Source of the DNA: a virus
DNA length: 64,000 nt
IMG/VR virus record: IMGVR_UViG_3300025789_001072
Span: 32,001-96,000 of that record
Reading direction: 5' to 3' (one strand)
A program made the position numbers and the translations under genes. A model generated the notes under the pieces. The model was not told where the DNA came from. It saw nothing but the letters and a program-made list of their open reading frames with translations, and searched no databases. Below, piece by piece: positions 4,179 to 50,753 of the stretch; the first letter of the stretch is position 1, and each line of letters begins with the position of its first letter.

Positions 4179-4311
4179 TGGTGCGCTCTACCAGAATCGA
4201 ACTGGTACGCCGAAGCGAGAGATTTTACGGCGGAGATTCTGGATTTGAACCATAATGGGCGTTTACCCTTTCTCCGAAGTCTCTTGTGTCTACCTATTCC
4301 ACCAAGAGCGC
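4179..4311 (-). tRNA. tRNA-Leu(TAA) interrupted by a 50-nt insertion (4228-4277) in the anticodon loop
   Basis: Removing 4228-4277 gives a canonical 83-nt tRNA-Leu: GCGCTCT/AGAGCGC acceptor, AGAGA-CTTAAAA-TCTCT anticodon arm, variable hairpin, TTCGATT T loop, ACCA end. Confidence 0.9.
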
Positions 4312-4624: not shown

Positions 4625-4700
4625 TGGTGGGCAGTGAGGGACTCAAACCCCCGATCAAATTCTTATGAGGAACCGGCTTTAGTCGCTAAGCTAACCGCCC
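4625..4700 (-). tRNA. tRNA with CAT anticodon (Ile2 or elongator Met)
   Basis: GGGCGGT/ACTGCCC acceptor, anticodon arm GGTTC-CTCATAA-GAATT, ACCA end; atypical D and T loops. Confidence 0.85.
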
Positions 4701-8866: not shown

Positions 8867-9304
8867 TTACTTTACTTTCTTCTGTGATTGTTTAAACATT
8901 TTATACAATCCAAGTTCACGACCAAAGGCTTCAATCTCCCAAGGACAATCCCAATAGTTCATATCTTCTGGATAATACTCACCAGCAAAACGATACATGC
9001 GCTTACGAGAGTTGAAGCCAAACTTGTCACACACATGCTGCTTGACATGCACCATCTCATGGGCGAGCGCCAACAATATAGACCGCTCGCCCATGTCAGC
9101 ATCAACCGTGATAGTAAACTCTTTACCATCATCATTGACACAATCAGCATAATTGCCTTGGTTCTTCAAAAAACCTTTTTCAAAGTCAATATGCACGTCT
9201 ACCTTCGCATGTTTCTTCATGAGATAATCGGCATAGAAACCCATCGCTGCCTTGACGGTTTTGTGGTCAATCTTGGAAGGCTTGCCAGAAATCGTGAGGA
9301 ACAT
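8867..9304 (-). CDS. zincin metallopeptidase-like protein
   Basis: LAHEMVH (HExxH) and PWEIEA motifs. Confidence 0.75.
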   Translation of the reverse strand: MFLTISGKPSKIDHKTVKAAMGFYADYLMKKHAKVDVHIDFEKGFLKNQGNYADCVNDDGKEFTITVDADMGERSILLALAHEMVHVKQHVCDKFGFNSRKRMYRFAGEYYPEDMNYWDCPWEIEAFGRELGLYKMFKQSQKKVK

Positions 9305-9330
9305 GCGATATCTCCATTGCTTATATTCTC

Positions 9331-9358
9331 AATATAACATGGATTTAGGGTTTGTCAA
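9331..9358 (-). promoter_or_regulatory. sigma70-type early promoter of the peptidase-helicase-MTase operon
   Basis: TTGACA-N16-TATATT with TG extension. Confidence 0.7.
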
Positions 9359-9815
9359 GCATTATTATTTCGTCAAATCCCTCACTCAGATGAGGCATTT
9401 CAAGATGTTCAATCATGCTATCAATAACATTTTGCGGTATCTTCTTGCCCCAACGACTGTCCAATCGGCGTTGCAATTCGGCCTCATCTGGCGTAGGAAA
9501 AAATACCCCAACCTTGATCCAATCCTTGGGTAGCCGTGCCAACCGCAACTTGCGGTGCTTGGCTACCGTGTTGGTTTGATCCCATACAAGCGTCTTGTCC
9601 AAATTGATAGCCATCTGCACTTGCGAGTCACAAAACTTTTGTGCATAGCCAATAGCCTGACTAAACATTTGGTCATAGGTCTTGCCAGCCTTGGCAGCGA
9701 CAGTTTCAATATAAGCATCGCTAGACGCAATGATTGCGTCTTCAAAACCTTGCTTTGTAATCCACGTTGACTTGCCGGAACCTGGCACACCAATTAACAT
9801 ATAACACTTTGTCAT
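9345..9815 (-). CDS. P-loop kinase (AAA_33, polynucleotide 5'-kinase-like)
   Basis: GVPGSGKST, SSD, WDQTN and RxxxR lid motifs. Confidence 0.85.
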   Translation of the reverse strand: MTKCYMLIGVPGSGKSTWITKQGFEDAIIASSDAYIETVAAKAGKTYDQMFSQAIGYAQKFCDSQVQMAINLDKTLVWDQTNTVAKHRKLRLARLPKDWIKVGVFFPTPDEAELQRRLDSRWGKKIPQNVIDSMIEHLEMPHLSEGFDEIIMLDKP

Positions 9816-31969: not shown

Positions 31970-32278
31970 TTATTTGTACGATGGGGAATAAAATTTAAAT
32001 GCCTCTTTCCAAAAAGTGCTGTAAAGATCATTTGAAACCTGTTCTTGCATCTTCTTGAAATGCTTGCCAGCACTAACTTCTTCAACTGACTTTGCCATTT
32101 CACTGGAAATTACGCCCATTGCGCTTGCTGCTGCCTTAACAGCATCCTTTGTATAAGCAGATTGTGCATCAACAAATGCGTTCATGCTCTTTGCAATAGT
32201 TTCGTTCTGCACAAAAGTCTTTACCATAGTCTTTTTTGCGTTCTGTACGGTATCAATAAATTCATCGGTATCAAACAT
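31970..32278 (-). CDS. phasin-like amphipathic helical protein
   Basis: start refined to MFDTDEFIDTVQ (AAGGAG RBS); Ala-rich amphipathic helices; TGC-rich upstream box. Confidence 0.55.
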   Translation of the reverse strand: MFDTDEFIDTVQNAKKTMVKTFVQNETIAKSMNAFVDAQSAYTKDAVKAAASAMGVISSEMAKSVEEVSAGKHFKKMQEQVSNDLYSTFWKEAFKFYSPSYK

Positions 32279-39571: not shown

Positions 39572-39765
39572 TTAACGGGTGGGTTGCTATCCCCACGATG
39601 GTTTTAGGCTGGTCTACCATTTCGGGTTTCGTTTGTCTGACACAACTACCATTACCTTAAACAGGTCTCTCACCTGTGCAGTCCACTGATATTGGTATGC
39701 ATCCCTCACAGATGGTTTTTAGTTATACTCGCTCCAACCTTTTAGCACAGCCGTGCCGCCGTTAA
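39572..39765 (-). ncRNA. 194-nt structured RNA with a tRNA-like frame
   Basis: terminal stem TTAACGG/CCGTTAA, GCAC/GTGC arm, AGGTTGG/CCAGCCT helix, internal hairpins, GTGGG/CCCAC arm; no ORF. Confidence 0.7.
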
Positions 39766-49590: not shown

Positions 49591-49902
49591 AAAAAGTGCA
49601 ACTTTTCTGTTTCGAGGTAAGTTGCCAACCCAAGAAATTAAGCTACTAGAGCCATTTCAATTAATGCATTATCGTTAGCATTTATTACGTTTACTAACAT
49701 CTACTCAAAACCTTTACTACACCTGTCGATCCTAATTGCCGCCCATCAAAGATACACCGTCATGGACTCAAACCATAATAGCATTAGAGTTAACTAATCT
49801 ATGTATCATACCCCACGTCTGGGCAGTGTATCTATGGTGGACGGCGAGAGAATTGCACTCTCGTCCAGCATGTTTATTCTGTTTTGCCTCAACAATATTA
49901 GT
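49591..49902 (-). ncRNA. ssrA: circularly permuted (two-piece) tmRNA
   Basis: acceptor piece first (T arm GAGAG-TGCAATT-CTCTC, GCCGTCC-A-CCA ending at 49835), 90-nt spacer, coding piece starting GGGCGGC at 49744 (G3.U70 pair), tag frame 49679-49638 ANDNALIEMALVA*; outer ends approximate. Confidence 0.9.
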
Positions 49903-49906
49903 ATGT

Positions 49907-49937
49907 TATTTATAGCATAGGGAAAGGGTTATGTCAA
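49907..49937 (-). promoter_or_regulatory. composite sigma70 / T4-late-like promoter for the tmRNA
   Basis: TTGACA-N17-TATAAA, where the -10 box is a perfect TATAAATA. Confidence 0.75.
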
Positions 49938-49940
49938 GGG

Positions 49941-50753
49941 TTAAATTATTTTATCCCAACTATCCAGATCAGATAACATTTCGTGAAATATAATACCAGG
50001 ATGTTTACAATCTCTTGCAAATGATTTTTTCTCTTCCATTGTAGAAAATGCTATTTTTAATTTTTCTTCATTTACTGAAAACAAATTAATATTATTTTCA
50101 TATGCAATAAATTTTATAGCATTCCAATTTCTATGCCAAAATATCTGTTGTTCATCATCGCCTGAAAAATAATTTTGATATGCATATTCATAGAAAAACA
50201 TATTTTCTTTACTAAGATTATTTCTTTGAGAAAAATCATCAGTTAATACCCAATTACCAATGCCATCACTTTGTTGTTTTTTTCTAATAAATTCTCTACG
50301 ATTTTTAAATAGTCCCATTATATAAACATTCTTTTGTTTAATAACTGGTAACCATGCCGCCATTAAACGATACATTGTTTCAATCCCAGCACCAGATTGG
50401 CTAAGATTGTAAAAACACCCACCAATTTTTCTGTTAATTTTATATCCGCATGTATCTTCTATATTAATACCATTTCCTGCAAGTATACTGCATCCTAAAA
50501 AAACATTCCCTTCTTCTGGGTTTTCCAAATTAAAATTATCTGGTGTTCTAAATCCATAATTGTTATAGGAATATATTATCTCAGCATCTATCCAATTATT
50601 TTTTTCTAATAAAATTTTATTTTCTTTTAAATTTTTTTTATATGTCTCAATAGAATCTCTATTTGCATACTTTAAAATTTTATTTGATTCATTGTAACTA
50701 TATGAAAAATTATTGAAAAATTCTTTATCAGACATTTTTTGTTTGGTCGTCAA
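49941..50753 (-). CDS. SGNH-like hypothetical protein (AT-rich)
   Basis: YNNYGFR, FLGCS, NLSQSG and ARDCKHPG motifs. Confidence 0.6.
   Translation of the reverse strand: MTTKQKMSDKEFFNNFSYSYNESNKILKYANRDSIETYKKNLKENKILLEKNNWIDAEIIYSYNNYGFRTPDNFNLENPEEGNVFLGCSILAGNGINIEDTCGYKINRKIGGCFYNLSQSGAGIETMYRLMAAWLPVIKQKNVYIMGLFKNRREFIRKKQQSDGIGNWVLTDDFSQRNNLSKENMFFYEYAYQNYFSGDDEQQIFWHRNWNAIKFIAYENNINLFSVNEEKLKIAFSTMEEKKSFARDCKHPGIIFHEMLSDLDSWDKII

Follow-up and report, generated by a model that had tools for sequence, protein, structure and literature searches.

The tmRNA gene and its parts

The window, a 64,000-nt stretch of viral DNA (positions 32,001 to 96,000 of IMG/VR record IMGVR_UViG_3300025789_001072), carries a circularly permuted tmRNA gene on its minus strand. 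The Rfam model RF01849 matches at 49595-49941 with 89.9 bits (cut-off 50) and a second permuted-tmRNA model, RF04321, matches at 49638-49897 with 84.9 bits (cut-off 47). Because both covariance models score above their gathering thresholds, the gene is assigned as a permuted (two-piece) tmRNA. The ARAGORN call at the locus is tmRNA*, with the tag ANDNALIEMALVA. The acceptor piece, whose 5’ end is approximate, terminates in CCA at 49837-49835 and the coding piece begins with GGGCGGC at 49744; the intervening segment (spacer) is therefore 49834..49745, 90 nt. The acceptor-stem strands on either side of it pair with each other in both the Rfam alignment and the precursor fold. The features of the locus are listed in Table 1.

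Table 1. Features of the tmRNA locus in window coordinates.
Feature	Position	Strand	Basis
Circularly permuted (two-piece) tmRNA gene of the phage	49595..49941	-	Rfam RF01849 and RF04321, ARAGORN
Putative promoter: TTGACA (49937-49932), 17 nt, TATAAA (49914-49909)	49909..49937	-	By eye
Acceptor piece (T-arm of the tRNA-like domain and 3’ strand of the acceptor stem)	49835..49905	-	Rfam alignment, precursor fold
Intervening segment, 90 nt	49745..49834	-	Between CCA and G1 of the tRNA-like domain
Closing stem, 5’ arm AGAUACACUG; first 7 nt are the family-invariant core	49824..49833	-	Fold, relatives
Filler hairpin 1, CCCA-GACG-UGGG	49812..49823	-	Fold; specific to the filler type of the window, L008 and L010
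Filler hairpin 2, bulged, 9 bp, AUAGAUUAG-UUAACU-CUAAU-G-CUAU	49778..49802	-	Fold
Filler hairpin 3, T-arm-like, UAUGG-UUUGAGU-CCAUG, 1 nt from the 3’ arm	49761..49777	-	Fold
Closing stem, 3’ arm CGGUGUAUCU	49750..49759	-	Fold, relatives
Leader UUGAU, immediately 5’ of the coding piece’s G1	49745..49749	-	Tails of relatives’ spacers
Coding piece, G1 to terminator-like hairpin GCAACUU...AAGUUGC, then U6	49595..49744	-	Rfam alignment, sequence reading
Tag reading frame GCU...GCU UAA, encoding (A)ANDNALIEMALVA	49638..49679	-	ARAGORN, Rfam alignment, sequence reading

Both hexamers of the putative promoter, TTGACA and TATAAA, are invariant in a seven-sequence alignment (A1). A promoter and terminator scan of the window listed neither the promoter nor the terminator read by eye, because the second hexamer of the consensus scan must end in T and because the 14-nt loop of the terminator exceeds the loop limit of the scan. 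Pfam and PHROG scans of the neighbouring ORFs gave no match to a nuclease or recombinase, and a blastn search with the tmRNA gene as query had no match among 50,697 phage records. Genes for RtcB, an Rnl2-type ligase and RNase III were not found in the phage’s 130,704-bp record; these absences say little because the record is about 37% complete. A T4 Rnl1-type ligase gene is present just left of the window.

Fold of the intervening segment

The minimum-free-energy structure of the 90-nt spacer (RNAfold) has an energy of -26.3 kcal/mol (z -2.62; 1 of 200 shuffles was as stable). It is a four-way junction in which a 10-bp closing stem, AGAUACACUG/CGGUGUAUCU, including one U-G pair, encloses three hairpins, and the identical fold is recovered within a 206-nt precursor context. 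When the closing stem is left out, the stability of the interior is not beyond chance (z -0.82); the closing stem alone beats chance.

Sequence differences touch two of the filler hairpins. In the related contig L008, the U-G closing pair of hairpin 3 is replaced by U-A, and a metatranscriptome variant contig carries a U>C change at 49780 that would break a pair of hairpin 2. A small share of the query words was contained in six metatranscriptome runs, and four of these were examined. The contigs from the four runs belong to relatives only (85-95% alike) and cover parts of the spacer and coding piece; some of them bridge the two, and could represent precursor or DNA.

Comparison of the spacer with tRNA

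Like tRNA (RF00005), the window spacer has the outline of a four-way junction. Its third hairpin, at 49777-49761, has the form of a T-arm, with a 5-bp stem closed by G-C and a 7-nt loop of the UUNRANN type, and this loop, UUUGAGU, is identical to the loop of the phage’s own tRNA-Met (hairpin 4636-4652). Next to the 3’ strand of its closing helix the spacer has, like tRNA and tRNA-like processing signals of the mascRNA kind, a hairpin of 5 bp with a UUNRA-type loop of 7 nt. The remaining layout departs from canonical tRNA: the closing stem has 10 bp where the acceptor stem has 7 bp, the first hairpin loop (GACG) has 4 nt and lacks the GG of a D loop, the middle loop (UUAACU) has 6 nt where an anticodon loop has 7, and the linkers measure 0, 9, 0 and 1 nt as compared to 2, 1, 4-5 and 0 nt in tRNA.

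Model searches also separate the spacer from tRNA and mascRNA. An Rfam search of the isolated 90 nt returned no match even at E<=10, tRNA (RF00005) included, and, as the segment was searched alone, clan competition cannot mask a tRNA match. ARAGORN made no tRNA call in the window spacer; among 61 isolated spacers it called a tRNA in L044 alone, where the Rfam search yielded tRNA-Sec alone (11.9 bits, E 7.9). The tRNA covariance model found nothing within the spacers in the records of L252, L044 and L016. In Rfam scans of the window and 39+10 related loci at gathering scores, which included riboswitches, ribozymes and group I introns, only tmRNA overlapped the spacers; clan competition would have masked tRNA matches in these scans. 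Orphan T-arm-like hairpins are not enriched in the phage record, with 12 non-tRNA matches as compared to 8.4+-2.9 in shuffles. A hand-made descriptor (closing stem, 4-bp hairpin, T-arm) matched 545 places, nearly all of them true tRNAs, and is therefore too loose to count. The descriptor search also brought up the relative L106 and a stand-alone double T-arm element at L151:879-959.

The original prediction had placed a tmRNA spacer at 49745-49834, folded into a 10-bp stem with three hairpins. Its coordinates and strand are correct and its fold is the RNAfold minimum-free-energy structure. It had also described the spacer as a tRNA-like RNA, an identity that is not supported, given the null results of Rfam (E<=10) and ARAGORN and the unconserved interior. 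For annotation, the lesson is that a cloverleaf shape enclosed by a long closing stem does little to establish a tRNA-like RNA.

A conserved closing stem in related phage tmRNA genes

A family of related spacers was defined by CCA, A or U, AGAUACA...UGUAUCU, a short tail ending in AU or CU, and then GGG; the window belongs to it as U-AGAUACACUG...CGGUGUAUCU-UUGAU-GGG. The pattern TCCACCAWAGATACAY was found in at least 118 stretches in IMG/VR, and a permuted tmRNA was present at the motif in all 39 of these loci that were scanned with Rfam. The strict-arm set from IMG/VR comprises at least 94 instances and at least 76 distinct spacers. At least 94 related phage tmRNA genes preserve both the stem base AGAUACA/UGUAUCU and the tail UUGAU. 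Among the matches listed, the strict and looser sets together hold 79 spacers of 32-158 nt with 54 unrelated interior types. Spacers cut by contig ends were excluded from the counts, as was L121, a 40-nt match without convincing tmRNA context. Of 125 occurrences of the 5’ motif, 20 lack a preceding T-arm and for this reason were judged to have arisen by chance.

Conservation of the stem was also seen in a protein-anchored alignment that is independent of the motif, where the stem base is kept in 6 of 7 genes. The seventh gene, L004, has AAACACA/UGUGUUU, with changes on both sides of the stem, and its spacer consists of a 32-nt hairpin only. Beyond the invariant base, stem positions 8, 9 and 10 form standard pairs in 56, 54 and 51 of 60 spacers, respectively, with three to six pair types at each position, a pattern of covariation. 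Position 11 pairs in 35 of 60 spacers and further pairing is at the level of chance. Read on the tmRNA strand, the covarying positions display 24 G-U as compared to 6 A-C combinations, an asymmetry that points to selection on RNA rather than on a DNA palindrome. The 5-nt tail TTGAT is present in 33 of 60 spacers, and seven more have longer tails ending in TGAT because the match to the 3’ arm is shifted by 2 nt. Between the conserved inverted ends lies a variable, non-coding centre of 10-135 nt. This comparison of related genes shows that the stem and leader are conserved and that the stem covaries at the RNA level.

No long spacers in the AGAUACA-stem family were seen among the loci examined, and the AGAUACA spacer form with a gap of 40-70 nt is absent from 185,579 species (one genome per species). 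Many of the related tmRNA genes are directly adjoined by tRNA genes. In the literature that the searches reached, neither the conserved stem nor the swapping of spacers was found described; supplements may list phage tmRNA sequences.

Constraint and exchange of the spacer interior

The interior capping the stem is variable. The window-type cloverleaf interior is present in only three contigs (the window, L008 and L010), and among the matches listed the same place is filled by 53 other interior types in relatives. The folds of the interiors have a mean z of -0.40 across spacers, with z below -2 in 4 of 59 and above 0 in 22 of 59. Neither GNRA loops nor generic hairpins are enriched among the fillers. 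The ORFs within them are likewise not enriched (longest ATG-ORF 5.24 codons on average, compared to 5.27 in shuffles), and when 45 spacer types were compared with 900 phage tRNAs, the best matches were within the shuffle range. By these measures the filler seems to be free of constraint.

Pairwise comparison of 63 genes (1953 pairs) shows that fillers and tmRNA bodies have discordant relationships. Eight pairs have bodies at least 90% alike and unrelated interiors, and 14 pairs have bodies less than 80% alike and interiors at least 80% alike. Some identical interiors lie inside bodies that are only 66% alike, and some unrelated interiors lie inside bodies that are 98% alike. For example, the spacers of L006 and L051 are 100% identical between flanks that are 65-67% alike, while L051 and L062 have flanks that are 97-99% alike around unrelated spacers. 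In roseophages, the whole spacer differs between DSS3P8 and DSS3_MAL1/MD18 within a nearly identical tmRNA.

Among the matches listed, T-arm-like hairpins are present in 4 of 54 spacer types as compared to 0.10 expected, an enrichment of approximately 40-fold that was reached in 0 of 3000 shuffles. In three of these four types (the window type, L106 and L044), and also in the cultured roseophage DSS3_MAL1, the hairpin abuts the 3’ strand of the helix around it, an arrangement like that of a tRNA minihelix. The L106 spacer contains two canonical GG-UUCGAUU-CC hairpins, and the spacer of DSS3_MAL1/MD18 folds into a four-way junction (z -3.33) with AGCGG-UUCGAAA-CCGUU abutting its 3’ arm. This enrichment, together with the placement against the 3’ strand of the helix, indicates that at least some fillers are not random. 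In addition, differences within a filler type keep the filler hairpins paired in L023/L050 and L058/L104; these few cases hint at selection on filler structure.

A probable stem-closed processing hairpin with an exchangeable filler

Taken as a whole, the spacer is probably a processing hairpin that is closed by a stem and capped by an exchangeable filler, rather than a tRNA or an element of the Leu-insert kind. The functional part would be the closing stem of 10-11 bp, separated from CCA by a single base, and with it the UUGAU leader that precedes G1. Within the precursor, the stem may keep the two ends of the tRNA-like domain next to each other, and could in this way set up cleavage by RNase P at G1 as well as the endonucleolytic removal and trimming of the 3’ trailer. 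By analogy with the established two-piece tmRNA, the UUGAU/G1 junction is the expected RNase P site; for the AGAUACA-stem family, we infer both the putative processing enzyme and the cleavage site from this analogy. An invariant sequence of 7 bp exceeds the need of a purely structural clamp, which suggests a sequence-specific partner.

The 64 nt capping the stem would be one of many interchangeable fillers that are swapped among phages by recombination. Crossovers may take place in the universally conserved flanks, CUCCACCA-W-AGAUACA and UGUAUCU-UUGAU-GGGG. Crossovers within flanks of about 16 nt would be rare, so that selection or a dedicated mechanism may be needed to explain how often swaps occur. 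The third hairpin of the window filler, a T-arm look-alike stacked near the closing helix, may be a tRNA relic or a helper for tRNA-end enzymes.

Alternative explanations

The original prediction related the spacer to an insert in the phage’s tRNA-Leu(UAA) gene (4228-4277) through a shared string, and proposed, as one of two possibilities, that a small tRNA-like element targets stable-RNA processing sites. If one mobile element were responsible, the tmRNA spacer and the Leu insert would be two copies of it. Each of the two inserts does have a closing stem, a G/C hairpin (4 bp, 4-nt loop) and the string AUUAUGGUU-YRAR-UCCA, which is present at the two inserts and nowhere else in the 130,704-bp record. 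Their local alignment score of 19 has p ~0.005 against shuffles, in a relative (L140) the same tRNA-Leu exons lack the insert, and spacers are exchanged between tmRNA genes. However, the spacer scores higher against the phage’s own tRNA-Met (22, with an 11-nt exact match read by eye from this score and the two hairpin sequences) and tRNA-Gln (21), and the Leu insert scores higher against the L044 spacer (21). In L135 the shared string reads ACUAUGG, and there is no kinship between the two closing stems; a MAFFT alignment of both inserts (A2) did not respect their structures. In exact-word scans of IMG/VR, tRNA-Leu(UAA) was the sole location of the Leu insert (one site, 4 contigs) and tmRNA that of the window-type filler (3 contigs), so that each insert type is confined to its own kind of gene. 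Only 3 AGATACA...TGTATCT pairs lie outside tmRNA genes in 2.35 Mb of sequence, about chance by a rough estimate. By blastn, the phage tRNA-Leu gene had no match in 50,697 phage records. As far as the exact-word scans of IMG/VR reach, a mobile element common to both sites is refuted, and we regard it as extremely unlikely. The shared string is, judged from these alignments, a generic T-arm likeness and signals no specific kinship to the Leu insert. The inverted repeat could instead be a recombination or transposition site acting on DNA, comparable to the termini of a miniature element or to an integron attC hairpin, which would account for the swaps. Conserved inverted ends around a variable centre (10-135 nt) recall the architecture of integron attC sites, and the exchange boundaries are sharp. 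Against such a site, the excess of G-U over A-C (24 to 6) fits an RNA helix on the tmRNA strand, roseophages swap the stem itself along with the filler, no extra copies lie elsewhere in 2.35 Mb, and Pfam and PHROG scans of the neighbouring ORFs revealed no recombinase beside the gene. A site of this kind is very unlikely.

Two further explanations take the T-arm-like hairpin as their starting point. The excised spacer could be a functional mimic of the top half of a tRNA, a stable RNA that engages tRNA-end enzymes or tRNA-directed host defences. The enriched T-arm motif (4 of 54 types, 0.10 expected), the double T-arm hairpins of L106, the ARAGORN call in the L044 spacer, the four-way junction of DSS3_MAL1/MD18 with its T-arm-like hairpin against the 3’ arm, the identity of the window T-loop UUUGAGU with the tRNA-Met loop, and a published tRNA-Ala that lies intact inside the intervening sequence of a permuted tmRNA (PMC11915505) are all compatible with this. 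Yet 50 of 54 spacer types among the matches listed lack a T-arm-like hairpin, the spacer of L004 consists only of a 32-nt hairpin, and the tRNA covariance model is null in the spacers of the window, L252, L044 and L016. The helix from T-loop to stem base measures 15 bp in the window as compared to 12 bp in tRNA, the first hairpin loop has no GG, and the junction linkers are unlike those of tRNA. We consider such a mimic unlikely. Alternatively, the filler could be a decayed tRNA gene or fragment that was placed by recombination and is functionless now. The four-way outline of the window spacer, the local matches to phage tRNA-Met (22) and tRNA-Gln (21), the tRNA genes that adjoin many of these tmRNA genes, the weak tRNA-like unit in L044 and the same tRNA-Ala precedent (PMC11915505) favour decay. 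However, nothing beyond the T-arm aligns to tRNA, the comparison of 45 types with 900 phage tRNAs stayed in the shuffle range, and Rfam is null at E<=10. The enrichment concerns the T-arm only, and its recurrent placement at the 3’ strand of the helix in independent types fits function better than decay, which we likewise hold to be improbable.

Implications

The spacer of a two-piece tmRNA is regarded as a disposable linker; in a large group of aquatic phages it has instead a fixed RNA stem, and its filler passes between lineages independently of the tmRNA itself. With the stem-closed processing hairpin as the preferred reading, the family is a naturally occurring system in which to study how precursors of permuted tmRNA are cleaved and which partner reads the invariant stem. 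It also opens the question of whether an obligatory processing site of a stable RNA can carry extra RNA cargo. The same swap between the cultured roseophages DSS3P8 and DSS3_MAL1/MD18 allows these questions to be taken to the bench.

The release of extra tRNA-mimic RNAs at obligatory processing sites, as originally proposed, is partly borne out in that there is an exchangeable slot at such a site and that T-arm-like hairpins are enriched in it; it is at odds with an interior that is unconserved and has no match to the tRNA model. As a speculative and rather doubtful extension, the spacer could be a cargo slot that is emptied by tmRNA maturation. A minority of the cargo would be RNA resembling the top half of tRNA, in an undescribed set (the window, L106, L044, DSS3_MAL1/MD18 and L151:879-959) that acts on tRNA-end enzymes or on defences aimed at tRNA. 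If this were true, tmRNA maturation would release a small RNA with a T-arm stacked on a long helix, and selection for new cargo would drive the cassette-like swapping.

Comparison with known systems

A tRNA within the spacer of a permuted tmRNA has a precedent. An intact, high-scoring tRNA-Ala was reported in the intervening sequence of a permuted tmRNA and called unique by its authors (PMC11915505). That case and the window both have a tRNA-shaped unit in an excised spacer, but the window spacer scores nothing with the tRNA model.

Permuted tmRNAs of the alphaproteobacterial type are also carried by OM43 phage Melnitz and by pelagimyophages, aquatic T4-like myophages with curli csgGF genes (PMC9004378). 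Their tmRNA gene is described as lying behind an early promoter, with a glutamine riboswitch, a structured RNA module, at its 3’ domain (PMC9004378). The tmRNAs of these phages and of the window are alike in being phage-borne, permuted and of the alphaproteobacterial type; the available portion of PMC9004378 does not treat the intervening segment, its stem or its variability.

The closest bacterial counterpart is the alphaproteobacterial permuted tmRNA (Caulobacter type, RF01849/RF04321), in which the segment takes the same position, from CCA to G1, and the tRNA-like domain is the same. In a search of gaps of 20-50 nt, 86 distinct alphaproteobacterial spacers were found to be 21-50 nt in length, most often 23 nt, and mostly to form one small hairpin. 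These bacterial spacers, too, are mostly a hairpin placed a few bases away from either end. Unlike the bacterial spacers, those of the phage family have an invariant 7-bp stem base, reach up to 158 nt, contain 54 unrelated fillers and are exchanged between lineages.

Position of the spacer within the tmRNA gene

In the source virus record, which is 130,704 bp long and about 37% complete (CheckV), ARAGORN identified a permuted tmRNA with the tag ANDNALIEMALVA, and two Rfam models matched the gene. The positions of the CCA end of the acceptor piece and of the GGGCGGC that opens the coding piece define the 90-nt stretch between them as the intervening segment, which confirms the original prediction on this point. 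The gene is framed by a putative TTGACA-17-TATAAA promoter, both hexamers of which are unchanged in an alignment across seven relatives, and by a hairpin followed by U6; neither element was listed by a simple scan tool, owing to the tool's own rules.

Features of the tmRNA gene and of other stretches discussed in the text (window coordinates)
Feature	Position	Strand	Basis
alpha_tmRNA	49595-49941	minus	Rfam, 89.9 bits
tmRNA_permuted	49638-49897	minus	Rfam, 84.9 bits
CCA end of acceptor piece	49837-49835	minus	read from strand
Intervening segment, 90 nt	49834-49745	minus	CCA and GGGCGGC positions
Coding piece start, GGGCGGC	from 49744	minus	read from strand
Tag	49638-49679	minus	
270-residue ORF	49941-50753	minus	
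Structured-RNA candidate, 194 nt	39572-39765	minus	sequence reading
tRNA-Leu(UAA)	4182-4311	minus	

The tag ends in ALVA and not the usual ALAA; relatives in alignment A1 have ALAA-type ends. Directly upstream of the promoter lies a 270-residue ORF without a Pfam or PHROG match, which the compared loci L010, L002, L004 and L008 lack here: their blastn matches break off at 50737 and resume at 49943-49950. The structured-RNA candidate matched no Rfam family at gathering score.

A conserved stem encloses variable fillers

RNAfold reproduced the four-part structure originally described for the spacer: a 10-bp closing stem, the hairpin CCCA-GACG-UGGG, a bulged 9-bp hairpin and UAUGG-UUUGAGU-CCAUG. 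This structure (-26.3 kcal/mol, z -2.62, equal stability in 1 of 200 shuffles) was also formed within the 206-nt precursor. The interior without stem and tail gave a z of -0.82, and the fold signal is due to the closing stem.

Relatives were first gathered through a neighbouring 1086-residue protein, which gave ten related loci, six of them with a tmRNA. In the alignment of the tmRNA-bearing relatives, the stem base and tail are kept and the interiors are not alignable; the interior of the window's spacer is common only to L008 and L010 within this protein-anchored set. The spacer of L004 is a 32-nt hairpin only, with its stem base altered on both strands. The word TCCACCAWAGATACAY was found in at least 118 stretches of IMG/VR. 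All 39 loci scanned with Rfam have a permuted tmRNA at the motif, and about 20 of 125 motif occurrences are chance matches in coding DNA. A strict count gives at least 94 instances with at least 76 distinct spacers; together with a looser set, at least 79 spacers of 32-158 nt fall into at least 54 interior types.

The stem has seven invariant pairs, although the search word partly imposes invariance on its 5' half; this bias does not touch the 3' half or the protein-anchored alignment. Three covarying pairs follow, with standard pairing in 56, 54 and 51 of 60 spacers; pairing weakens at position 11 and is at chance level further in. Wobble pairing is biased towards the tmRNA strand (24 G-U versus 6 A-C), and the stem is therefore an RNA helix.

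Fillers are exchanged between tmRNA genes

Interiors across types look close to random. Their mean fold z is -0.40, generic hairpins and ORFs show no excess (ORFs, 5.24 vs 5.27 codons in shuffles), comparison with 900 phage tRNAs gave no kinship above shuffle level, and an Rfam scan found no family besides tmRNA. Among the loci retrieved, no spacer of this stem family was long enough to hold a small protein gene. Fillers do not drift together with the tmRNA gene. Among the 1953 pairs formed by 63 genes, 8 combine a body likeness of 90% or more with interiors alike no more than shuffles, and 14 combine a body likeness below 80% with an interior likeness of 80% or more. The 67-nt spacers of L006 and L051 are 100% identical, with flanks that are only 65-67% alike; the spacers of L051 and L062 are unrelated, with flanks 97-99% alike. 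The window tmRNA is itself a mosaic, with the acceptor stem as in L002 and the spacer as in L008 and L010, and blastn of L002, L004, L008 and L010 against the window revealed mosaicism on a larger scale throughout the region. The cultured roseophages DSS3_MAL1 and MD18 have one common spacer; that of DSS3P8 differs, down to its stem, whereas the rest of the tmRNA is nearly identical.

The permuted tmRNA locus of DSS3P8 (L375, KT870145.1 about 9100-9500) has no annotated feature; its DSS3_MAL1 homologue is annotated ssrA. In contig L090, a homologue of the L057-type filler (2288-2322 and flanks) lies about 300 nt downstream of the tmRNA motif, within another stem, AAGCAUACUU/AAGUAUGCUU. On the minus strand of L102, at about 160-420, a spacer-like hairpin, an unpermuted mini tRNA-like domain (GGGGUCA, T-arm, GACUCCACCA), a second spacer and the coding piece follow one another in tandem.

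T-arm-like hairpins and the tRNA-Leu insert

The segment had been read as a tRNA-like cloverleaf. The outline held, as did the T-arm-like hairpin; tRNA identity did not, with no Rfam family at E<=10 for the spacer searched alone and no tRNA found in it by ARAGORN. Its junction is unlike that of a tRNA in all measures except the third hairpin, a good T-arm look-alike whose loop, UUUGAGU, recurs as the T-loop in the phage's tRNA-Met. Over the whole record, orphan T-arm-like hairpins occur at chance level (12 vs 8.4±2.9). Among the fillers, hairpins whose G-C-closed stem has 4 bp or more and whose loop is UUNRANN are present in 4 of 54 listed interior types (the window type, the L089 type, L106 with two, and L044) against an expectation of 0.10 types, and four were reached in 0 of 3000 shuffles. 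The T-arm had thus been recognised correctly, and the hairpin recurs among fillers; the motif marks a minority of fillers, and the segment is not thereby a tRNA. In the window type, L106, L044 and DSS3_MAL1, only 0-1 nt separate the hairpin from the 3' strand of an enclosing helix, a placement like that in a tRNA minihelix. The DSS3_MAL1 spacer forms a four-way junction (z -3.33). The tRNA model matched none of these spacers.

The L106 spacer (1243-1334), of the same stem family, contains two canonical T-arms, GGUGG-UUCGAUU-CCACC and UGAGG-UUCGAUU-CCUCA, the second adjoining the 3' arm. In L151, outside any tmRNA, a seven-tRNA array is preceded at a distance of 2 nt by a stand-alone element (879-959), in which a 12-bp stem encloses the T-arm-like hairpins AUGGG-UUCAAUU-CCCAU and UUGGG-UUCAAUU-CCCAA.

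A string shared with the 50-nt insert in the anticodon loop of tRNA-Leu(UAA) had been taken as a sign of kinship. The insert is real. In the relative L140, which lacks it, the exons are identical and the CUUAAAA loop is uninterrupted; three more contigs (L135, L373 and L374) have it at the same site, one with ACUAUGG instead of AUUAUGG. The local match between spacer and insert scores 19 (p about 0.005). Higher scores link the spacer to tRNA-Met (22) and tRNA-Gln (21), and the insert to the spacer of L044 (21); the string that they have in common is therefore a T-arm consensus with four further bases. In exact-word scans of IMG/VR, neither filler nor insert was found at another kind of site. 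Given these better matches and the lack of a second kind of site in these scans, the view that the two are copies of one element was rejected. The idea that the segment is a tRNA mimic with kinship to the insert is for the most part unsupported. Carrying a T-arm-like hairpin may be a trait common to both.

In the case of L227, the tRNA of another phage with the same D and anticodon arms has an unrelated 71-nt insert ending in the T-arm-like AGAGG-UUCAAAC-CCUCU; ARAGORN calls it tRNA-Phe(aaa) with an intron. The phage tRNA-Leu(UAA) genes of L136, L146, L148, L166, L175 and L204 have long inserts after the same CU of the anticodon loop, an arrangement that may resemble the group I intron of tRNA-Leu. 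A gene for a T4 Rnl1-type RNA ligase (PF09511, 89.3 bits; G000:C1:30812-31396, minus strand), some 600 bp to the left of the window, adjoins the tRNA cluster containing the interrupted tRNA-Leu; the 130,704-bp record, at its estimated completeness, yielded neither RtcB nor an Rnl2-type ligase.

Processing and comparison with bacterial spacers

From established facts on two-piece tmRNAs, RNase P would be expected to cut before G1. The 3' trailer would start one base past CCA, locked in the 10-bp stem, so an endonucleolytic cut would probably be needed before trimming. That the stem sequence is invariant suggests a putative sequence-reading partner. Crossovers within the universal flanks of about 16 nt would account for spacer swaps, and swap frequency may reflect selection on cargo. 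The boldest reading, release of T-arm-bearing fillers as functional tRNA-top RNAs, appears unlikely. The published account of a tmRNA database describes as unique one permuted tmRNA with an intact tRNA-Ala at this position (PMC11915505).

The segment is a tmRNA spacer specific to phages, closed by a stem, open to swapping and holding a non-coding filler; it combines its defined position, a conserved leader and a conserved, covarying RNA stem with a variable filler that is exchanged. Alphaproteobacterial tmRNA spacers (at least 86 distinct, 21-50 nt, the range admitted by the search) mostly form a single small hairpin that stands a few bases away from both CCA and G1, with 23 nt as the commonest length. 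A search of 185,579 species, one genome each, found no phage stem motif with a gap of 40-70 nt. Next to the alphaproteobacterial spacer, that of the phages is therefore an ordinary feature in enlarged form, with a fixed base.
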